From: a virus
Lineage: Duplodnaviria > Heunggongvirae > Uroviricota > Caudoviricetes
Reading direction: 5' to 3' (one strand)
Virus record (IMG/VR): IMGVR_UViG_2778261168_000006
Length of the DNA stretch: 15,276 bases
The notes below the pieces were generated by a model. That model made no database searches, had not been told where the DNA came from, and worked only from the letters and a program-made list of their open reading frames with translations. This document shows positions 1 to 12,415 of this stretch, in pieces. Every line of letters starts with the position of its first letter. The stretch's first letter is position 1. The position numbers and the translations under genes are program-made.

Positions 1-1254
1 ATGCTGGAACAAATGGGCATTGCCGCGAAGCAAGCCTCGTATAAATTAGCGCAACTCTCCAGCCGCGAAAAAAATCGCGTGCTGGAAAAAATCGCCGATG
101 AACTGGAAGCACAAAGCGAAATCATCCTCAACGCTAACGCCCAGGATGTTGCTGACGCGCGTGCCAATGGCCTTGGCGAAGCGATGCTTGACCGTCTGGC
201 ACTGACGCCCGCACGGCTGAAAGGCATTGCCGATGATGTGCGCCAGGTGTGTAACCTCGCCGATCCGGTGGGGCAGGTAATCGATGGCAGCGTACTGGAC
301 AGCGGCCTGCGTCTGGAGCGTCGTCGCGTACCGCTGGGGGTTATTGGCGTGATTTATGAAGCGCGCCCGAACGTGACGGTTGATGTCGCTTCGCTGTGCC
401 TGAAAACCGGTAATGCGGTGATCCTGCGCGGTGGCAAAGAAACGTGTCGCACTAACGCTGCAACGGTGGCGGTGATTCAGGACGCCCTGAAATCCTGCGG
501 CTTACCGGCGGGTGCCGTGCAGGCGATTGATAATCCTGACCGTGCGCTGGTCAGTGAAATGCTGCGTATGGATAAATACATCGACATGCTGATCCCGCGT
601 GGTGGCGCTGGTTTGCATAAACTGTGCCGTGAACAGTCGACAATCCCGGTGATCACAGGTGGTATAGGCGTATGCCATATTTACGTTGATGAAAGTGTAG
701 AGATCGCTGAAGCATTAAAAGTGATCGTCAACGCGAAAACTCAGCGTCCGAGCACATGTAATACGGTTGAAACGTTGCTGGTGAATAAAAACATCGCCGA
801 TAGCTTCCTGCCCGCATTAAGCAAACAAATGGCGGAAAGCGGCGTGACATTACACGCAGATGCAGCTGCACTGGCGCAGTTGCAGGCAGGCCCTGCGAAG
901 GTGGTTGCTGTTAAAGCCGAAGAGTATGACGATGAGTTTCTGTCATTAGATTTGAACGTCAAAATCGTCAGCGATCTTGACGATGCCATCGCCCATATTC
1001 GTGAACACGGCACACAACACTCCGATGCGATCCTGACCCGCGATATGCGCAACGCCCAGCGTTTTGTTAACGAAGTGGATTCGTCCGCTGTTTACGTTAA
1101 CGCCTCTACGCGTTTTACCGACGGCGGCCAGTTTGGTCTGGGTGCGGAAGTGGCGGTAAGCACACAAAAACTCCACGCGCGTGGCCCAATGGGGCTGGAA
1201 GCACTGACCACTTACAAGTGGATCGGCATTGGTGATTACACCATTCGTGCGTAA
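1..1254 (+). CDS. proA: gamma-glutamyl phosphate reductase (proline biosynthesis), complete 417 aa
   Basis: Full-length ORF from the first base of the window; translation reads as E. coli ProA end to end ([19 protein letters not shown] ... [14 protein letters not shown]). Followed by tRNA-Thr as in the proBA-thrW locus. Confidence 0.95.
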
Positions 1255-1368: not shown

Positions 1369-1444
1369 GCCGATATAGCTCAGTTGGTAGAGCAGCGCAT
1401 TCGTAATGCGAAGGTCGTAGGTTCGACTCCTATTATCGGCACCA
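1369..1444 (+). tRNA. thrW: tRNA-Thr, anticodon CGU, with encoded CCA
   Basis: 76-nt cloverleaf by hand: acceptor GCCGATA/TATCGGC, D-stem GCTC/GAGC, anticodon loop UUCGUAA (anticodon CGT at 1402-1404), T-stem GTAGG/CCTAT, discriminator A plus CCA at 1441-1444. Confidence 0.92.
1428..1444 (+). repeat. attL core: 17-bp direct repeat TCCTATTATCGGCACCA within the tRNA 3' end
   Basis: Identical 17-mer recurs at 12399-12415; flanking bases differ on both sides. Covers T-loop end, T-stem 3' strand, acceptor 3' strand and CCA, the classic P4-type integration target. Confidence 0.8.
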
Positions 1445-1558
1445 CCCCCTAGTTTTTTCAAGTCAACTCACATCAACAAAATCCTTTAAAAACATATATG
1501 TTATGTTCTTTTTAGTCATTTGAGGTCAACCCTTGTCTCTTGAAATCAACTCGCAATT

Positions 1559-1607
1559 GGGGGCACAATCAGGGGCATGTTCTGTTCGGTCCAGGAAATG
1601 TGCCCCC
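1559..1607 (+). promoter_or_regulatory. 9-bp inverted repeat GGGGGCACA / TGTGCCCCC bracketing the int ribosome-binding site
   Basis: Arms at 1559-1567 and 1599-1607, 31-nt spacer containing AGGA (1593-1596); right arm ends 1 nt before the int ATG at 1609. Could be a protein-binding site or an RBS-sequestering RNA hairpin. Confidence 0.3.
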
Positions 1608-1608
1608 A

Positions 1609-2799
1609 ATGATGCTGAATGCCCGCAAGGTTGAAGCTGCGAAAGGAAAAGAGAAGAGCTACAAGCTGTCTGATGGAGGTGGACTTTACCTTCAGGTTGA
1701 ACCTAATGGCTCGCGTTACTGGCGTATGAAGTACCGTTTTGCTGGTAAAGAGAAGCGCTTGTCCTTTGGTGTTTATCCAACAGTCACACTTGCTGATGCC
1801 AGACAAAAACGAGAAGACGCAAAGAAACTTCTCGCAGTAGGTGAAGATCCTGGCGAAGTGAAAAAAGCAAAAAAGCAGGCTTTAAACGCAGCGATTGAGA
1901 CACTTAACCCATTCAGAGACGTGGCGTTAGAGTGGCACAAAATGAAATCTCCCAAATGGTCTGAGGGCTATGCTTCAGATATCATTGAAGCATTTGAGAA
2001 AGACATTTTCCCGCATATTGGACATAGACCTATAGCTGATATTCAGCCCCTTGAACTGCTTGAAGTTCTGAGGTTGATAGAAGCACGAGGCGCTATGGAG
2101 AAAGCGAAGAAAGTCCGTCAGCGATGCGGTGAAGTTTTCCGCTATGCCATCGTAACGGGTAGAGCAATCTACAATCCGGCACCGGATCTTGCCAGCGCGA
2201 TGCAAGGACATGAAGCAGTCCACTATCCATTCCTCAAAGCCAACGAGCTGCCGGAGTTCTTTACTGCCCTTAACGCTTATTCAGGAAGTCCAATTGTATT
2301 GTTGGGGGCACAATTGCTTATCCTGACAGGCCTAAGAACTGGAGAACTAAGGGCAGGTGAGTGGCGTGAGGTGGACTTTAATAATGCGGTGTGGGAGATT
2401 CCAAAGGAACGTATGAAAATGCGTAGGAGCCATATTGTCCCGTTGCCAAAACAAGCATTATCCCATCTCAAAAGTTTGAAAAACCTAACTGGGAACTACC
2501 CGCTGATGTTCCCTGGACGCAACGATCCTAGCAAACCTATGAGTGAAGCAAGCATTAATCAGGTTTTTAAACGTATTGGATATGCAGGGCGTGTTACGGG
2601 ACATGGTTTCAGGCATACGATGAGTACGATTCTACATGAGAAAGGATTTAACAGCGCTTGGATTGAAACCCAGCTTGCTCATTTGGACAAAAATTCTATT
2701 CGTGGAATTTATAACCATGCCCAATATCTCGAAGGGCGAAGAGAAATGATGCAATGGTATGCTAATTATTTATCTGAGCTAGTTGGTACTCATAAATGA
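1609..2799 (+). CDS. P4-family tyrosine integrase (site-specific recombinase with N-terminal arm-binding domain)
   Basis: Translation MMLNARKVEAAKGKEKSYKLSDGGGLYLQVEPNGSRYWRMKYRF... matches the conserved N-terminus of P4-type integrases; C-terminal region has the expected R...HxxR...Y layout (GHGFRHT, IRGIYNH). Start moved from the track's 1540 to the ATG at 1609 on the basis of the family N-terminus and AGGA at 1593-1596. Confidence 0.85.
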   Translation: MMLNARKVEAAKGKEKSYKLSDGGGLYLQVEPNGSRYWRMKYRFAGKEKRLSFGVYPTVTLADARQKREDAKKLLAVGEDPGEVKKAKKQALNAAIETLNPFRDVALEWHKMKSPKWSEGYASDIIEAFEKDIFPHIGHRPIADIQPLELLEVLRLIEARGAMEKAKKVRQRCGEVFRYAIVTGRAIYNPAPDLASAMQGHEAVHYPFLKANELPEFFTALNAYSGSPIVLLGAQLLILTGLRTGELRAGEWREVDFNNAVWEIPKERMKMRRSHIVPLPKQALSHLKSLKNLTGNYPLMFPGRNDPSKPMSEASINQVFKRIGYAGRVTGHGFRHTMSTILHEKGFNSAWIETQLAHLDKNSIRGIYNHAQYLEGRREMMQWYANYLSELVGTHK

Positions 2800-3620
2800 A
2801 TGTTTTAAAAATTAATAATACTGATTCTCTGCTCAGAGATTACTACCAATTAGATGAGGCTTCAGAAAAAATTGGTTGTAATGAAAAGGATATACTTTGG
2901 TTTGCTAGAGAACGGGATGTAGAGTTATGCATGGAATTTCATGATGATGAGTATGATGTTTCATGTGGTTTGAAGATCGATGGTCAAATGGATGAGTTCT
3001 TATCCAATCTGAAATCTTTACCGCGAGACAGAAATGGCAATATTATGTTGTCAGATTTAAGCTCTATAAGAATTCCTGATGAAAATAATTTAATTGATAA
3101 AAATGGCTTTATTCGGTGCTTCATATCCGGTTTATGGGCTGTTGATTATGAATATAAAGATCTGTTAGTTAAACATGAAGGACAACCGGATTCCTGGCCT
3201 CAGCATTTTTTAGTAGCAGGTACGCCTAATGTAAATTATAAGGCAACGCTTTATGTTAATTATGATGAAAAAGAAAATTATTATCTTTTTGAGGTTTTGT
3301 GGATTACAAAAGTACAAATTCAAAAATTCATTGACTTAGTATCATGTGAGCAAAAGCGGATAAAAAACACCAACAAATATAAATCACAATCTGAAGCGCA
3401 AAAACAAAAGCATGCAGTTCCTCGGGCTGAAATACTCATGGCTGTTATTTCACTCTATCATCGTGATATGAGGTTAAGAAGAGAGAGCCCAGCAGCGATA
3501 GCTGATTATCTTTTTCAACACGCCAGTGAGTTCTGGCCTAAGGCCGGAGAGCCGCCTTTGAGCTATGATACTGTTGTTAGTTTGCTTCGTAGCTGTATGA
3601 AAAATACAAAATTTAACTGA
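2796..3620 (+). CDS. hypothetical protein, 274 aa, AT-rich, overlapping the int stop (ATGA); unknown function
   Basis: Long ORF in markedly AT-rich DNA relative to int and backbone; start codon overlaps int stop (ATG 2796-2798 / TGA 2797-2799); followed by a hairpin plus T-run. No motif recognised by eye. Confidence 0.6.
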   Translation: MNVLKINNTDSLLRDYYQLDEASEKIGCNEKDILWFARERDVELCMEFHDDEYDVSCGLKIDGQMDEFLSNLKSLPRDRNGNIMLSDLSSIRIPDENNLIDKNGFIRCFISGLWAVDYEYKDLLVKHEGQPDSWPQHFLVAGTPNVNYKATLYVNYDEKENYYLFEVLWITKVQIQKFIDLVSCEQKRIKNTNKYKSQSEAQKQKHAVPRAEILMAVISLYHRDMRLRRESPAAIADYLFQHASEFWPKAGEPPLSYDTVVSLLRSCMKNTKFN

Positions 3621-3635
3621 ATGTTAACAATTGTT

Positions 3636-3676
3636 GTGACTAATGATTTTGGGTTTTTCTCATTAGTCACATTTTT
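3636..3676 (+). terminator. rho-independent terminator candidate after the int-adjacent gene
   Basis: 11-bp perfect stem GTGACTAATGA (3636-3646) / TCATTAGTCAC (3660-3670), 13-nt loop, followed by ATTTTTCTCATTT. Confidence 0.45.
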
Positions 3677-3745
3677 CTCATTTATAACTTGTGTTTTAAT
3701 TTTCCGTGTTGAAGCCAATAGACTTAGATAAACGGAGAATGATGA

Positions 3746-4045
3746 ATGTTATCCAAGCATGACAATACTACTTTGCAACGCCCTTCAATGGATTCTCTGG
3801 TCGATATGAAGTTTATTACATCAGATTGCTTACTAAGTGATAAATGGATTTATAGGTTGATTTCTTTAAATCGTTTCCCTAAACCTATAAAAATAGGACG
3901 GATGTCGCGTTGGCGGGCAGCAGATTATTATATGTGGAGAGATGGGTTCGAAGAAAACTCTGGACAGAAATTTGAAGGGATGAGAGAAAAGGCAAGAAAC
4001 ATTAAAAGTGGGAATACCTTAGCGTCTACTCCCACAATTCAATAG
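3746..4045 (+). CDS. alpA: AlpA-family phage transcriptional regulator (excisionase-like HTH), 99 aa
   Basis: Core KFITSDCLLSDKWIYRLISLNRFPKPIKIGRMSRWRAADYYMW resembles AlpA/prophage CP4-57 regulatory protein; GGAG at 3734-3737 precedes the ATG; sits after int as in CP4-type islands. Start could be an internal Met. Confidence 0.65.
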   Translation: MLSKHDNTTLQRPSMDSLVDMKFITSDCLLSDKWIYRLISLNRFPKPIKIGRMSRWRAADYYMWRDGFEENSGQKFEGMREKARNIKSGNTLASTPTIQ

Positions 4046-4072
4046 AGTTCAATATTATTAATAACTAATGGC

Positions 4073-4246
4073 TTAGCCTTTAGGCTCTATTCCTCGTAAT
4101 TGAAGCTCTTTACGTAAAATTCTCTTGATCCAAGATGCCAATGCGTTATCTCCATCTTTGCGCATTTCATTTTCAAGCTGCAACCTGAAATCTTCGTTAA
4201 GACGCATTTGGAATGGAGGAGAGCGTTTTTCTTGTGGTGTTGACAT
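4073..4246 (-). CDS. small ribbon-helix-helix (Arc/CopG-like) DNA-binding protein, ~57 aa; candidate island repressor
   Basis: C-terminal 57 aa of the track ORF (MSTPQEKRSPPFQMRLNEDFRLQLENEMRK...) has the beta-strand-then-helix pattern of Arc-type RHH proteins. Upstream Met codons of the track ORF lie inside the operator palindromes and lack an RBS, so the short start is preferred but uncertain. Confidence 0.5.
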   Translation of the reverse strand: MSTPQEKRSPPFQMRLNEDFRLQLENEMRKDGDNALASWIKRILRKELQLRGIEPKG

Positions 4247-4288
4247 GGTAATTACCCTAACATATGATGCGTACATGGTAATTACCAT
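4243..4288. promoter_or_regulatory. paired palindromic operator sites (ACATGGTAATTACC x2) in the divergent control region
   Basis: 14-bp direct repeat at 4243-4256 and 4273-4286, each containing the 10-bp palindrome GGTAATTACC; the second extends to the perfect 14-bp palindrome ATGGTAATTACCAT (4275-4288). Centres are 30 bp apart; they overlap the start of the minus-strand RHH gene and lie upstream of the plus-strand early operon. Confidence 0.5.
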
Positions 4289-4376
4289 TGTAGAGCTAGA
4301 GAGCCTATAAAAGCAATGCCCGAGAGTGCTGGAACACCGCTCGAGCATTTAACCACCGTTAAAAGAGGTAACGAAG

Positions 4377-4553
4377 ATGGCTAAACAGAAGTGTACCTGG
4401 TTATTTGCGGCGATCAACCGCAGTCAGCGCAATGCCCGTCCTGTGATGTTAAGGATCAATGCAGATAACGAGCGGTCAGCGCGGCGCAGACTTGCCCCGG
4501 ACTATGTGCTGAGCTTTGCCAGTCGCATTCCTTGCGGAGGTGAAAATGCGTAA
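4377..4553 (+). CDS. small ORF (58 aa) missing from the ORF track; possibly Icd/Ash-like small phage protein
   Basis: ATG at 4377 preceded by AGAGG (4363-4367); translation MAKQKCTWLFAAINRSQRNARPVMLRINADNERSARRRLAPDYVLSFASRIPCGGENA; stop overlaps the next start (ATGcgTAA at 4546-4553). Family assignment is from memory and tentative. Confidence 0.45.
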   Translation: MAKQKCTWLFAAINRSQRNARPVMLRINADNERSARRRLAPDYVLSFASRIPCGGENA

Positions 4554-4905
4554 TTATCCGCAACCCGGCGAACGCTGGCAGCATGTACGTGGCTGGACCG
4601 TAACAATCATCCGATTAACTGAAGCCCCGCCCTCCGTGGCGCTGCTTAATCCTGAATTCAGCCGTGAAGTGCTGATACGTCATGACAGCGACAACCAGCT
4701 TTCTTCCTGCCCTCTGGCATGGTTTAAACAGCGGTATACGCGCCTGTTTGATGCGCCGCTCTTTAAATCTTCGCCAGCTCCGGCGGGCGGTAGTGGTTCC
4801 GGCCCGCTGACACTGCATCCGTCTGTGGTATTTACCCGCTGGCGGGAGCGCAGCATACGACGTTCTGCTGAACCTGACGACAGTCACTATTCCAGGTTTC
4901 TCTGA
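4546..4905 (+). CDS. hypothetical protein, ~119 aa, early operon
   Basis: ATG at 4546 preceded by GGAGGTG (4537-4543), a better start than the track's 4516; translation MRNYPQPGERWQHVRGWTVTIIRL...; contains a Gly/Ser/Pro-rich linker (SSPAPAGGSGSGP). Confidence 0.55.
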   Translation: MRNYPQPGERWQHVRGWTVTIIRLTEAPPSVALLNPEFSREVLIRHDSDNQLSSCPLAWFKQRYTRLFDAPLFKSSPAPAGGSGSGPLTLHPSVVFTRWRERSIRRSAEPDDSHYSRFL

Positions 4906-4936
4906 CAAAACACCGCTGAAAACGGAGTAATCCACG

Positions 4937-5221
4937 ATGAATATTTCAAACGGGCACAACGGTGCTCAGGGCCACTCCTTGCCTGAAAAACACTATACCG
5001 GTGCTTTTGCCTATGGGTTGTCAGAGGACGGTTTCGGAAAGCTGGCCAGAGCCAGAAAGGCCTGCGACATGCTGCAGCTTCTCTTTTCTGAATACCCGTC
5101 TCAGGGCGGAACGCTGGATGCAGGCTGTGCGCCAGGCATTGCCGCGCTGATGGAGTACCTGCGGGCAGATTTGACGGATATTGCGCACAGCTGCGCACTG
5201 ATTGAAGGAGGTGCTGAATGA
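4937..5221 (+). CDS. hypothetical protein, 94 aa, early operon
   Basis: ATG at 4937 with GGAG at 4924-4927; stop overlaps next start (ATGA at 5218-5221). Confidence 0.5.
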   Translation: MNISNGHNGAQGHSLPEKHYTGAFAYGLSEDGFGKLARARKACDMLQLLFSEYPSQGGTLDAGCAPGIAALMEYLRADLTDIAHSCALIEGGAE

Positions 5222-5601
5222 ACCAGCCGCAGGTTTCCATTTTCCCGGCAGAAATGACCACCGCACTGTACCGGCGGGCGATTGCATCGGCATGGCGGCA
5301 GAAAATGCTGACCGAAACCGGCAGTAATCGGTGTGGTCCGCACAGCCTGACGGTTGAGCGTATTGAAATGGCCATTGCCCTGCATATTGAGTGCGCACTG
5401 ATTAACGAGTACGGCGAAGAACAGGGCGCCGCTGTCGCGCTGGCACTGCTGACTGACATGCTGGAGCCGTCACTGCTGACTGCGCCGCCGGTACTGACCG
5501 TGCGCGGCTGTGAAGTGATGGCGGAGCTGTACCGCACGCTTCCGGCGGCCTTTGATGATTTCTGCAGCACGGGTGTGGCGCTGTATCAGGGGGAAGTATG
5601 A
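5218..5601 (+). CDS. hypothetical protein, 127 aa, early operon
   Basis: ATG at 5218 preceded by AAGGAGGTG; stop overlaps primase start (ATGA at 5598-5601). Confidence 0.5.
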   Translation: MNQPQVSIFPAEMTTALYRRAIASAWRQKMLTETGSNRCGPHSLTVERIEMAIALHIECALINEYGEEQGAAVALALLTDMLEPSLLTAPPVLTVRGCEVMAELYRTLPAAFDDFCSTGVALYQGEV

Positions 5602-8270
5602 CAACACAGACGGTTACGCAGATTTCAGCCGCCGCGCGGGGGAAATGGCCCGTTATTCTGCAGATGCTGCGTATTGATGTACCTGAAAACGGCAGGCACG
5701 GTCCCTGCCCGAAATGTGGGGGCAAGGATCGTTTTCGCCTCGATGACCTTGACGGGCGCGGGACGTGGATTTGCAGCCAGTGCGGCAATGGTGACGGTCT
5801 GGATCTGGTTAAGCTCATGACCGGTTACGGCGTCAGAAAGGCCGCGCAGGAGGTGGCGCAGGTGCTTAATGTGCCGGATATGCAGAAACTGCCCGTTAAG
5901 CCTGCCAGGCAAAAAGCCCCTAAACGCGACATGAGCCTTACCGTGGCGGCGCTGATGAAAGAGAGCCACACGGGAGAAAGCCCCTATCTGGCCGGGAAAG
6001 GGTTTGCCGGATACCCGGCCTCCCTGACCGGGAGCGTGCAGCATATCAGCGGTAAGGATTTCCCTGCCGGTTCCCTGCTGTTACCGCTCACGACCAACGC
6101 CGGAGCCGTGACCGGTGCGCAGCTTATCGCCCCGACGGGTGAAAAAAGCTTACTGCCCGGCAGCACGATGAAAGGTGCGTTTGTGGCGCTCAGCCCGTTA
6201 CCGCCTGAACCACCGGTACAGGTGGTGATTACCGAAGGCTATGCCACGGCGCTGACGGTAAGCCAGCTCACCGCCGGATGCGTAGTGGCGGCCATATCGG
6301 CGGTCAACCTGCCCAACGTTGCGCAGTCGCTGCGGGCACGCTGGCCGGAGGTAAAAATTATTATCGCCGGTGATAACGATTTTCAGGACGGGGGCGAAAA
6401 CCCGGGCAGAGCCTTTGCTGAACGGGCGGCAAAAGCCGTCGGCGGCTGGATGACGCTGCCACCGGGAGAGATGAAGGCCGACTGGAATGATTTCCATCGA
6501 GAGCACGGTATTACCCGCGCCCGTGATGCCTTTCGTAACGGTCTGGTGCTGTGCGGAGAAGGCCGCACGCAGCTGCCGCACGGGTTCCGTCTTACCCATG
6601 AATATCTGTGGTATGAAAAACAGGTACAGCGCAACGGTGAGACGGAGATCCAGAACGTCAAAATATGCAACCCGCTGCGCGTGACGGCAATCACCTGCGA
6701 TGCCGATGGCGGTAATTTCGGGCGACTGCTGGAGTGGGAAGATACATGGGGAGAGCGCCGCCGCTGGGCGATGCCGATGGAAATGCTCAGTGGTAGCGGT
6801 GAGGAACTACGCCGGGTACTGCTGGTTAACGGGCTGTCCTATATCAGCACCACCGGTGAGGCCCGTGCCCGCCTGATGGAATATATCTCGCTGTGTAAAC
6901 CGGAACGCCGCGTGACCTGCGTCAGCCGCACTGGCTGGCATGGTCAGGTTTACGTCCTGCAGGATGAGGTCAGCGGTGAAGGTGCAGAGGGTGTCATTCT
7001 CCAGACCACTTCCGTGCAGGGGCGCGATTTCCGTGTGTCAGGTACAACGGAGGAATGGCGGGAGCACGTTTCCCGTTACTGCACCGGTAACTCCCGCGTG
7101 GCGTTTGCCGTCAGTCTGGCCTTTGCTGCACCCCTGTTACGGCTGGTTGGGATGGACGGCGGCGGCTACCACCTCAAGGGGGAATCGACTGACGGTAAGA
7201 CCACCACCATGAAAGCGGCAACCTCCGTTTGTGGCGGGCCTGATTACTGGCAAACGTGGCGGGCAACCGGCAACGCGCTGGAGGGATGCGCCAGCCGCCG
7301 CAACGATGCCGCCATGATGCTTGATGAGATCCGGGAGGTGGACGGACGCGAGGCGGGTAATATCGCCTACATGCTGGCAAACGGTCAGGGCAAGGGCCGT
7401 GCCGGTACGGACGGTGAGCTGCGCACCCGTAAGCAGTGGCGGCTGCTGTTCTTTTCAACCGGCGAGCTGTCACTGACCGAACATGCGGCAAAAGCCGGTG
7501 AGCGTACCTTTGCCGGGATGGAAGTCAGGATGATCCAGATCCCCAGCGATTCCGGGAAATTTGGCGTATTTGAGGAGCTGCACGGCTTCGACAGCGGCAA
7601 GGCTCTGGCGGAACATCTGGAGTGGGCCACGTCCAGCTACTACGGTTCGCCGTTCAGGGAGTGGCTGAAAGCCCTGACCGCTGACCTTAACGGGCTGACG
7701 GCACAGGCAAAGTCACTGATGAAGGAATATACAGCCGCCCTGACCCCGAAAGATGCGGGTAATCAGGTAGGCCGGGCTGTGAACCGTTTTGCACTGGTGG
7801 CGATGGCGGGCGAGCTGGCAACCCGGCTGGGGATTACTGGCTGGCCTGAGGGGGAAGCGCTGCGGGCAACCCGCGTGTGCCTGAACGCCTGGCTGAAAGA
7901 TCGCGGGCACACCGCCAATCAGGAAGATATTGCCGCGCTGGAGCAGGTACGCAGTTTCTTTACCGCGAATCAGTACAGCCGCTTTGCAGACTGGCACGAC
8001 GAGCGCAACCGCCCCGGCAATATGGTGGGCTGGCGCAGGGTGGAGAAAGGCAGTACCGCGCAGGGCACGGAAGCCGTCACCACGTTCTACGTTATGCCGT
8101 CCGGCTGGAAAGAAATCTGCCGGGGATTTGACCCGCGCAAGGTGGCACGTCTGTGCGCGGATCGTGGATACCTGCAGCCTTCTGCCGACGGAAAGCTGCA
8201 GACAACCATTCGCCCGCCAGAGATGAATCCCCGCAGGCTCTACGTCTTCAACAGCGAGGTGCCGGGTTAA
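5598..8270 (+). CDS. P4 alpha-like replication protein: zinc-ribbon primase N-terminus, Toprim region, P-loop helicase C-terminus (890 aa)
   Basis: N-terminal CPKCGGKDRFRLDDLDGRGTWICSQCGNGDGLDLV is a primase-type CxxC...CxxC zinc ribbon; acidic Toprim-like motifs (VVITEGYATA, IIIAGDNDFQDGGENPG); Walker A-like GESTDGKTT in the C-terminal half. GGGGGA RBS before the ATG at 5598. Confidence 0.85.
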   Translation: MTTQTVTQISAAARGKWPVILQMLRIDVPENGRHGPCPKCGGKDRFRLDDLDGRGTWICSQCGNGDGLDLVKLMTGYGVRKAAQEVAQVLNVPDMQKLPVKPARQKAPKRDMSLTVAALMKESHTGESPYLAGKGFAGYPASLTGSVQHISGKDFPAGSLLLPLTTNAGAVTGAQLIAPTGEKSLLPGSTMKGAFVALSPLPPEPPVQVVITEGYATALTVSQLTAGCVVAAISAVNLPNVAQSLRARWPEVKIIIAGDNDFQDGGENPGRAFAERAAKAVGGWMTLPPGEMKADWNDFHREHGITRARDAFRNGLVLCGEGRTQLPHGFRLTHEYLWYEKQVQRNGETEIQNVKICNPLRVTAITCDADGGNFGRLLEWEDTWGERRRWAMPMEMLSGSGEELRRVLLVNGLSYISTTGEARARLMEYISLCKPERRVTCVSRTGWHGQVYVLQDEVSGEGAEGVILQTTSVQGRDFRVSGTTEEWREHVSRYCTGNSRVAFAVSLAFAAPLLRLVGMDGGGYHLKGESTDGKTTTMKAATSVCGGPDYWQTWRATGNALEGCASRRNDAAMMLDEIREVDGREAGNIAYMLANGQGKGRAGTDGELRTRKQWRLLFFSTGELSLTEHAAKAGERTFAGMEVRMIQIPSDSGKFGVFEELHGFDSGKALAEHLEWATSSYYGSPFREWLKALTADLNGLTAQAKSLMKEYTAALTPKDAGNQVGRAVNRFALVAMAGELATRLGITGWPEGEALRATRVCLNAWLKDRGHTANQEDIAALEQVRSFFTANQYSRFADWHDERNRPGNMVGWRRVEKGSTAQGTEAVTTFYVMPSGWKEICRGFDPRKVARLCADRGYLQPSADGKLQTTIRPPEMNPRRLYVFNSEVPG

Positions 8271-10786: not shown

Positions 10787-11710
10787 ATGAAAGTCAGACG
10801 AATTGGAATTTCTTTAACTAATAAAAATAAAACAATTCGCTTTTCCGATTTTATAAATTACTTAATCCCATTCAATGGGGAAAGAATGGGGTTTGATGGA
10901 GGGGAGCGCTTTTTCCTTTTCCACGAAGATGATGTGTTTTTTTCAGGTGTCGTTTTATCCTTTAAGGATCAGCGAAGAGATTGTAGGGCAAGATTTCAGG
11001 ATGGACAATTTACTATCCATACAGCTGATATTCTTGATGATGAAAAGTTGATTGATTTTAATTTTTTTGTTGTTAAGAAAAGCTCTTTGAAAGGCCTTTA
11101 CGAGTACTATCATAACTCTTGCAGTATACATGTTTTGTTTGCTTTGTTACGTAATAAATTCAATGCGTTGAAAGCGGAAAAAATTTCTAATTATATTGCT
11201 GATAATTTGGCTTTGGGGCGTGAAAAGGCTGAGGCTAAGGGTAAAAAGGAGTATGCAGGAAGACTCTCTACTTCTATCTTAATTGATAATAGAGATATAC
11301 CTACAGTCCTAGCTGAATACGCTAAGGTTAAGAAAATAGAAATGTTGTTTGATGCTCAGCAATTTGCTGTTGGGCATGCAGTTGCACTACAAAGGAGTTC
11401 GCGCGAGGTTAAAGTATCTTTTAATATCACGGATTCTGAACAATCGAATATTGATAGACTAACCCAAGGCGTAGTTGAGCTTGCAGGCAATGTAGGTTTC
11501 AAAAAAGGTAGTGTCAGTACTGTAGATAGTCATGATATAGAGCGAACTATTTCTATCTTAAATTGTCCTAAGAGATTAGGTGAGTGTGAGTTCGAAGATT
11601 TAGCTCATAGGATTGATGGCTTGACAGTGGAGAATTTTCATGAAAATGAAATACTTGTCGAGCTAAAAAGGGAAATAAACGAGGGGGAGTATCGTGCACT
11701 CTTTAATTAG
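10787..11710 (+). CDS. cargo gene A: hypothetical soluble protein, 307 aa, AT-rich; candidate component of an uncharacterised anti-phage system
   Basis: ATG at 10787 preceded by AAAGGA; AT-rich ORF with no hydrophobic segments; no known catalytic motif recognised by eye (no GS...DxD nucleotidyltransferase signature, no Walker A, no HxH/PD-(D/E)xK pattern I could place). Its 3' end overlaps gene B by 17 bp. Confidence 0.65.
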   Translation: MKVRRIGISLTNKNKTIRFSDFINYLIPFNGERMGFDGGERFFLFHEDDVFFSGVVLSFKDQRRDCRARFQDGQFTIHTADILDDEKLIDFNFFVVKKSSLKGLYEYYHNSCSIHVLFALLRNKFNALKAEKISNYIADNLALGREKAEAKGKKEYAGRLSTSILIDNRDIPTVLAEYAKVKKIEMLFDAQQFAVGHAVALQRSSREVKVSFNITDSEQSNIDRLTQGVVELAGNVGFKKGSVSTVDSHDIERTISILNCPKRLGECEFEDLAHRIDGLTVENFHENEILVELKREINEGEYRALFN

Positions 11711-12287
11711 ATATATAGCTCAGTTCCCTATGGCCAGTATTTTTAAACAAATGCTGGGTATTGTTATTTTCTCGCTAATCCTAGTGTGTGGTATTGCATT
11801 TCTGTATTATAAGTATGGATTCAGCATTACCTTAGAGAAAGATACTACTTTCTTTAATTATTATGAATCAAAAATAAGAGGGTATCTTTTTTCAGGCTTC
11901 ATTTCTGTTGGCTCTTTTTTGTTGTCATTACACACTTTTGTAATAGTAAATCTTAAAGATAAACTTTTTGATTCAGAAGCATATAAAAATAATTATATAG
12001 ATTTTAAAAGTCAACAGATTAGAAATTTCACCGCTGATATGATTAAACCATATGAGTACTATGCTCCTTTGAATGTTCTATCAGTCTTCCTTAATGTTTC
12101 TATATGGTTATCGATTATTACTGCTGTTATACAGTTTACACTTGGCTTTTATGATAACTCATATACAGCTCTTTTTTGTATGTACCTGGCTCTTGTGACT
12201 GTCCTCTTCCTCTTAAATTGCCTGATACTTATACGCTGTAACATTAAAGTTTGGCTAACACTTGAGCAAAAAAATAAACCTAAATAA
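11694..12287 (+). CDS. cargo gene B: hypothetical integral membrane protein, 197 aa, four predicted transmembrane helices; candidate effector/sensor partner of gene A
   Basis: GTG at 11694 preceded by GAGGGGGA (11681-11688); alternative ATG at 11730. Four hydrophobic segments (approx aa 20-38, 63-86, 126-150, 158-181) with positively charged flanks. AT-rich like gene A. Confidence 0.65.
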   Translation: MHSLIRYIAQFPMASIFKQMLGIVIFSLILVCGIAFLYYKYGFSITLEKDTTFFNYYESKIRGYLFSGFISVGSFLLSLHTFVIVNLKDKLFDSEAYKNNYIDFKSQQIRNFTADMIKPYEYYAPLNVLSVFLNVSIWLSIITAVIQFTLGFYDNSYTALFCMYLALVTVLFLLNCLILIRCNIKVWLTLEQKNKPK

Positions 12288-12398: not shown

Positions 12399-12415
12399 TC
12401 CTATTATCGGCACCA
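12399..12415 (+). repeat. attR core: duplicate of the tRNA-Thr 3' end (TCCTATTATCGGCACCA)
   Basis: Exact 17-bp copy of 1428-1444, no tRNA body attached; marks the right boundary of the island. Confidence 0.8.

Follow-up and report, generated by a model that had tools for sequence, protein, structure and literature searches.

The best-described control regions resembling the one analyzed here come from phages, plasmids, and a bacterial chromosome. The immI region of phage P22 combines two RHH repressors, Mnt and Arc, with the overlapping promoters P_ant and P_mnt and with the sar antisense RNA; a small Arc/Mnt-type protein is encoded there divergently from the promoter that it shuts off, two promoters that face each other both overlap a single operator of 17-21 bp, bound by a tetramer; further downstream, a ribosome-binding site is spanned by a short cis-antisense RNA, the target of the whole system being an antirepressor. 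In the IncQ plasmids R1162/RSF1010, a 75-nt antisense RNA (RF00043) lies over the ribosome-binding site of the repAC primase/helicase operon, and the small autoregulated F repressor acts together with this countertranscript. The type I toxin-antitoxin system SymE/SymR of Escherichia coli (RF01809) pairs an AbrB-fold protein, SymE, with an antisense RNA of 75-77 nt that is transcribed opposite codon 2 (AGYCAU) from a -10 located inside the target ORF and that has a two-domain fold with a GUGRUUAG linker. In P4 (CI) and P1 (c4-icd-ant), finally, early genes are controlled by trans-acting RNAs (CI and C4), which are processed from the leader and encoded where the early operon begins, ahead of the primase.

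Among satellites, Gram-positive PICIs encode a divergent regulator (Stl/Rpr) beside int and the primase operon. In Gram-negative elements, the global repressor is unclear and AlpA acts as an activator (Fillol-Salom et al. 2018; PMC6092414), and other Gram-negative PICIs carry C4/CI/isrK RNAs (PMC10111431). More than 30% of Enterobacterales genomes reportedly carry P4-like satellites (PMC8628076). Here, we analyzed a 15,276-nt stretch of DNA (IMG/VR record IMGVR_UViG_2778261168_000006, hereafter the window), in which the early genes of such a satellite are probably controlled by a protein plus an RNA. We could not find this two-layer switch described for satellites, and no work that our literature search returned relates satellites to RHH/Arc-like proteins, to Icd-like genes, or to SymR.

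A P4-Like Satellite at tRNA-Thr

The window holds an ~11-kb island bounded by the 17-bp direct repeat TCCTATTATCGGCACCA (1428-1444 and 12399-12415), which corresponds to the 3' end of tRNA-Thr, and beyond which lie a yagP fragment and then paoD and paoC (table 1). This island is a P4-like satellite integrated at tRNA-Thr: in addition to the tRNA and the att repeats, it has the core set of an integrase, a primase, and, downstream of the latter, a Psu-like protein in the Sid position, Psu, and Ogr/Delta, while epsilon was not found among its genes. The 274-aa ORF that follows the integrase is coupled to it translationally through an ATGA overlap (2796-2799) and is kept in relatives, where it is annotated as "hypothetical." The AlpA-like gene scores 20.1 bits for a cut-off of 21, and no terminator was found in the interval that separates it from the RHH gene. 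At the far end of the gene set, two cargo ORFs have no match in Pfam or PADLOC and occupy the place where close relatives have drt3a/drt3b, on which grounds they may represent an undescribed defense system in a satellite hotspot.

With regard to distribution, a survey of 5,426 complete genomes of E. coli found the Icd-like early region in 333 of them and, in 66, a match to at least 80% of a query spanning 3700-4600 (AlpA-like to Icd-like gene). The module is common to the P4-like element of the window and to Pmp8, a 15-kb Pasteurella element with terminase genes. The candidate repressor gene occurs in only 4 of 50,697 phage records, none of which is named P4.

Table 1. Features of the window and of its early control region (positions are those of the window)
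Feature	Positions	Strand	Remarks
E. coli proA	1-1254		Left end of the window
tRNA-Thr	1369-1441		Integration point of the island
Integrase gene	1540-2799		First island gene
274-aa ORF	2796-3620		Without family match
AlpA/Vis-like gene	3746-4045	+	Convergent with the RHH gene
57-aa Arc/Mnt-like (RHH-type) candidate repressor gene	4073-4246	-	
P_early (predicted)	4240-4268	+	TTGACA (4240-4245), 17 nt, TATGAT (4263-4268)
Operator O1 (candidate site)	4243-4256		Core palindrome GGTAATTACC at 4247-4256
Operator O2 (candidate site)	4273-4288		14-bp palindrome at 4275-4288
Candidate RHH promoter (prediction)	4287-4316	-	-35 TTGCTT (4316-4311), 18 nt, -10 TACAAT (4292-4287)
SymR-like cis-antisense RNA (predicted), ~75 nt	4303-4382	-	Opposite the Icd-like ribosome-binding site
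Icd-like gene, 58 aa	4377-4553	+	Heads the early operon; NCBIfam NF033153, E 2e-22
Predicted antisense promoter	4390-4417	-	-10 TACACT (4395-4390), -35 TTGATC (4417-4412), start 4382, inside the Icd-like ORF
Remaining early operon	4546-8270	+	Three small ORFs (one DUF5375), then primase
Primase gene	5598-8270	+	Zn-ribbon/Toprim/DUF927 domains
Two cargo ORFs	10787-12287		307 aa, and a 197-aa hydrophobic protein

Paired Palindromes at Two Predicted Facing Promoters

A sequence-only reading of this region had drawn attention to two 14-bp repeats, the downstream one taking part in a perfect palindrome, at the 5' end of a small minus-strand gene and in the divergent control region that separates this RHH-like gene from the early operon leading to the primase. 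This anatomy is confirmed: ACATGGTAATTACC makes up O1 and recurs at 4273-4286, 30 bp away from start to start; the second copy is part of the 14-bp palindrome ATGGTAATTACCAT; the 10-bp palindrome GGTAATTACC lies inside both copies; and O1 covers the start codon of the small gene (4246-4244). When the window was simulated 300 times with a first-order Markov model, not one simulation contained a 14-mer directly and exactly repeated within 60 nt; at least two 14-bp palindromes occurred in 86, and the window itself has a second one at 11634. Because a lone 14-bp palindrome is thus unremarkable, what counts is that the site is repeated, where it lies, and that it is conserved. Further GGTAATTACC-like sites in the island (at 4827 and 6224, with one mismatch each) were taken as chance occurrences. 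One element of the initial description that had to be abandoned is the equation of the 30-bp spacing with three helical turns: relatives show spacings anywhere from 27 to 35 bp, which speaks against helical phase as the functional constraint and suggests that the position of the promoter is what matters, the conserved feature in these relatives being the position of the sites relative to it.

P_early has 11 of 12 consensus matches and is the sole strong sigma-70 match in 3600-4700; it would start transcription at ~4275 and drive the operon that runs from the Icd-like gene to the primase. Its TTGACA, which doubles as codons 1-2 of the minus-strand 57-aa ORF, is kept in nearly all relatives. O1 fills the spacer between its -35 and its -10, overlapping the -35, and O2 covers its predicted +1, a layout (-35, O1, -10, O2) that relatives retain across all classes of sites. 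On the opposite strand, O1 lies between the Shine-Dalgarno sequence and the ATG of the RHH mRNA, and the candidate RHH promoter (8 of 12 matches) faces P_early, with predicted starts ~5 bp apart, its own start falling inside O2 and its -10 abutting O2. The TAnAAT that forms this -10 is conserved beside O2 in class-A loci; in class B, the promoter was not consistently detected. If both promoters are where they are predicted to be, RNA polymerase could not occupy them simultaneously.

Two departures from this layout were observed among relatives. In Photorhabdus khanii (L038, ~2960-3000), the O1-O2 segment including the -10 is deleted, which leaves one fused operator, as expected from recombination between direct repeats. 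In L021, L022, L016, and L050-type loci, a third full or partial copy of the operator, such as ATGGTAACGACCA or CGCAATTACATGG, is found just 3' of O2, where it covers the -35 of the candidate RHH promoter; the window has no such copy.

The Sites Vary with the Small Protein

Genome loci came from 67 places, among Enterobacterales, Pasteurellaceae, and Oceanimonas/Oceanisphaera, and the sites were compared over ~60 related loci. Counted across these kin loci, whose phylogenetic relatedness means that the counts are not independent events, proteins with an RSP[PQ][FY]QMRL segment (R-S-P at residues 8-10, Q13) are accompanied by GGTAATTACC-type or ATGGTAA..ACCAT sites in 22 of 22 distinct loci, and proteins in which residue 10 is not a proline (KTD.., KSQ.., RSK..; from Pectobacterium, Cedecea, Buttiauxella, and some Pasteurellaceae) are accompanied by TGTAATTACA sites in 11 of 11. 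The SPQFPMRL proteins (Q13P) of Photorhabdus and of one Citrobacter go with GGTATATACC sites, and NPPFQFRLDPEL proteins with GTGTAAT..ATTACAC sites. Two near-identical Testudinibacter proteins, with P versus K at residue 10, have GGTA.. versus TGTA.. sites. The rule for the center of the site is not strict, Pmp8 having a class-A protein but GGTATATACC at O1.

A pattern evocative of a footprint emerges from 21 distinct class-A loci, with drifting flanks around a ACATGGTAA..ACCAT that hardly varies. It could be objected that the repeat has no binding function and merely reflects overlapping constraints combined with a local duplication: coding and promoter signals do overlap O1, whose conservation is confounded by the start codon, the ribosome-binding site, and the -35; a single 14-bp palindrome is nothing unusual in 15 kb; and recombination between the repeats does occur, as in L038. 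This explanation is nonetheless highly improbable, given that class-A O2 is nearly invariant although non-coding, that both copies are palindromic, and that any change of protein type brings in different paired palindromes.

Assuming that the sites are bound, one may wonder by which protein. The sequence of the sites is independent of the AlpA-like neighbor, close AlpA homologs being present only in L007-L009, and of the first early gene, be it an Icd-like variant or a member of a 113-119 aa family. This dependence on the type of the small protein, and on neither of these neighbors, supports a repressor-operator pair. Binding by another protein strikes us as improbable, be it a factor of the host or the helper or the AlpA/Vis-like HTH protein, which would then resemble P4 Vis in its action at P_LE/P_LL: the AlpA-like gene does adjoin the sites, and L004 and L005 differ from the window in AlpA type, but they differ in small-protein type as well, so that these two loci alone cannot separate the candidates, whereas class-A sites are kept in many loci whose AlpA-like neighbor is unrelated or only remotely similar, and single-residue differences in the arm or strand of the RHH protein accompany changes in the sites. 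The protein-repressor switch proposed in the sequence-only reading thus gains in plausibility from promoter geometry, footprint, and co-variation of the sites with the N-terminal arm and strand, from which we infer both the binding and its repressive sign.

A distinct protein occupies the RHH slot in other E. coli satellites: in L005 (2649-2960, E. coli strain 219) and in L006, a 61-aa member of the YlcI/YnfO family, RHH-looking but unrelated to the 57-aa protein, is found there, and the early promoter is overlaid by three GTGCGATTCAC repeats. On this evidence, the uncharacterized YlcI/YnfO family may be one of small operator-binding repressors.

A Small Protein Resembling Arc and Mnt

The 57-aa ORF has the same length in RefSeq relatives, where it is annotated as a hypothetical protein, and the 58 clusters of homologs that we gathered (Enterobacterales, Pasteurellaceae, and Aeromonadales) are nearly all "hypothetical" and have no Pfam domain annotated. 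Its dN/dS of 0.05-0.16 versus relatives, with saturated synonymous sites, reflects strong purifying selection and shows that the gene is real. The initial assignment of its product to the RHH type fares less clearly. The window protein has no match in Pfam or NCBIfam, and hence none to a curated RHH/Arc profile; it matches PHROG 228 ("Arc-like repressor") with an E of 0.003, 8 of 30 relatives match the Pfam Arc profile (PF03869) weakly (best E 1.5e-4), and hhalign places it in register with Arc and Mnt with a probability of only 13-14%. Its strand motif, P-Q-[F/Y]-Q-M-R-L, is comparable to the PQFNLRW of Arc, and the reduced form P-x-[F/Y]-[N/Q]-x-R is common to the 57-aa protein and P22 Arc/Mnt, in a similarity that is otherwise marginal. 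The family alignment also has a conserved G32-D33-[N/S/T]34 turn, of the G-x-S/T/N form, and the AF2 monomer consists of an extended N-terminus and two helices. Taken together, motif, turn, predicted shape, and PHROG match are consistent with, if weak support for, what looks like an Arc/Mnt-type RHH protein.

The resemblance to P22 immI extends to the arrangement of the locus, with the small gene divergent from the promoter putatively shut off, an operator-like site shared by two facing promoters, and an antisense RNA over the downstream ribosome-binding site. The two systems differ in that paired palindromes, 27-35 bp apart among relatives, take the place of a single operator, in that the 57-aa protein is without the tetramerization tail of Mnt, and in that the operon concerned is the replication operon of a satellite rather than an antirepressor gene.

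Orphan RHH genes were also found beside chromosomal genes in Pantoea (L058 and L060, ~3001-3177), where the early operon and the operators are lost. These loci, with a class-B protein and no operators, were considered as counter-examples and set aside as remnants of decayed satellites devoid of an early operon.

A Predicted SymR-Like Antisense RNA Opposite the First Early Gene

The interval from O2 to the Icd-like ATG holds first a hairpin (4316-4348); next come the TCTAACCAC motif, which is invariant, and a 5-bp stem with the Shine-Dalgarno sequence in its loop, and then ATGGCT. All of these are conserved with compensatory changes. A MAFFT/RNAalifold consensus was poor on the plus strand, and the structure was resolved by folding the minus strand and building a covariance model. 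All 36 sequences fold more stably as the minus strand (mean -31.8 vs -20.8 kcal/mol), and the G-U pairs, 66 vs 17, also favor the minus strand. The leader hairpin was rejected as a plus-strand attenuator or terminator, since no U run follows it and the minus strand folds better in all 36 sequences; read on the minus strand, it is followed by TTGYTTTT and forms a candidate intrinsic terminator. The predicted RNA would thus comprise a stem-loop at its 5' end, complementary in its loop to the Shine-Dalgarno sequence, a GUGGUUA stretch, the terminator hairpin (4348-4316), and a U tract.

Every intact locus has beside it one full-length match to our minus-strand covariance model, which scores 74.8 bits in the window. 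In the refitted alignment, 96% of cells are paired and 16 of 21 pairs are compensatory, a covariation that none of 500 shuffles reached and that collapses in slid controls. A second full-length element is present in some Photorhabdus loci (L024, L025, L027, L028, and L030, at ~1635-1720), ~1.2 kb from the first. The predicted promoter of the RNA is conserved in turn: in 37 of 38 distinct 5' coding regions, a -10-like TAnnnT precedes AGCCAT by exactly 7 nt, and codon 6 is always NNT through eight different codons, which points to a non-coding constraint.

The predicted architecture is that of SymR, namely a cis-antisense RNA opposite codon 2, with an internal promoter whose -10 is at the equivalent spot of the target ORF, a 3' terminator hairpin, a similar length, a two-domain fold, and the same type of linker. 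The Rfam SymR model aligns to the window over its full length with 26 bits and to relatives with 26.7-42.1 bits (the highest in L011, E 1.3e-4), all of them below the gathering threshold of 61; conversely, our own model finds the annotated symR of K-12 at its exact 5' end (29.5 bits, E ~1e-5). Unlike in SymE/SymR, the target is the Icd-like gene or the 113-119 aa early gene, and the symE promoter region has, rather than RHH operators, a CTG-N10-CAG motif that we take to be a LexA box. A likeness to the IncQ countertranscript is also apparent, in the partnership with a small, putatively autoregulated repressor, in the size of the RNA, in its position over the ribosome-binding site of an operon with a primase, and in the sense leader (hairpin, UAACCAC, Shine-Dalgarno hairpin, AUGGCU), which aligns over its full length to RF00043 with 25.7 bits for a gathering threshold of 55.

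The sequence-only reading had opposed its protein switch to the RNA-based immunity of classical P4, and this contrast is only half right. Rfam C4 and isrK gave no match at the gathering threshold over the whole window, nor with E up to 10 over 3600-5700, and classical P4 immunity was rejected for this element because the CI/C4/isrK RNA is absent by Rfam; nevertheless, the conserved SymR-like RNA lies within the very region in which that reading saw a protein switch. The window shares with P4 CI and P1 C4 its position at the head of the early operon and its apparent RNA control, and with P1 an Icd-type target, but it differs from both in that its RNA is predicted to be a true cis-antisense transcript and in the presence of a protein repressor gene. 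RefSeq relatives have no RNA or regulatory feature annotated at the control region.

The antisense RNA persists where the small-protein family is swapped, and its conservation equals or exceeds that of the operators. This observation bears on the role of the 57-aa protein, which might bind the sites without being the maintenance repressor, as an autoregulator, an activator or anti-repressor, or a minor modulator, the gate being then the antisense RNA, which outlasts exchanges of the protein, or AlpA, the trigger activator of Gram-negative PICIs (PMC6092414). We consider this rather unlikely, for a site in the spacer of a near-consensus promoter together with another at +1 is a classical repressor geometry, and the -35/O1/-10/O2 order is retained across all classes. 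We place somewhat more confidence in the antisense RNA than in the repressor-operator pair.

A Possible Two-Layer Switch

We thus favor, with fair but not high confidence, a model in which O1 and O2 are operators of the divergently encoded Arc/Mnt-like protein, to which the antisense RNA adds a second layer. One dimer would bind each 8-10 bp palindrome, of core GTAATTAC, with the strand residues Q11/Q13/R15 reading the core and the N-terminal arm reading the flanking bases. Because O1 fills the promoter spacer and O2 covers the start site, their occupancy would silence the early operon, Icd-like gene and primase included, and thereby keep the integrated satellite quiet. O2 also covers the point where the weaker RHH promoter, which faces P_early, would initiate, and the protein may thus autoregulate its synthesis: blocking P_early would probably free the RHH promoter, which would then be limited in turn. 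Transcripts escaping this repression would be met by the antisense RNA, issued from within the Icd-like ORF and pairing with their leader and ribosome-binding site, which would limit the translation of the toxic-looking Icd-like protein and, probably by polarity, that of the downstream genes.

More speculatively, a bistable switch could arise from convergent transcription, both between P_early and the antisense promoter and between the AlpA-like and RHH genes. Read-through from the AlpA promoter might provide a route by which a helper phage triggers derepression. The general plan recalls Gram-positive PICIs, in which a divergent regulator also sits beside int and the primase operon, although the RHH module is unrelated to Stl, and the AlpA-like gene recalls Gram-negative PICIs.

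Implications for Satellite Biology

Beyond CI, the RNA of P4, and AlpA, which activates E. coli PICIs, little is known about the silencing of P4-like satellites. A mini-repressor with readable operator classes would offer a testable answer for one big satellite lineage, and, if it is indeed a repressor, the RHH module would be the global repressor left open for Gram-negative elements. The natural allelic series, in which P10K goes with G-to-T and Q13P with AATT-to-ATAT, makes it a tractable system for protein-DNA specificity, and the operator classes predict immunity groups among satellites. As for the antisense RNA, it ties the early control of satellites to SymR and to IncQ countertranscripts.

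In its broadest and still tentative form, which we regard as possible but short of probable, the hypothesis would be that the mini-repressor, its paired operators, and the SymR-type RNA together form, in swappable types, the master repressor or "immunity" system that has been missing for a large Gram-negative satellite lineage, both P4-like and PICI-like. If this were true, these types would amount to at least four operator classes plus the YlcI/YnfO version, and the chromosomal SymE/SymR system of E. coli would be a relative, or a domesticated remnant, of a satellite control region.
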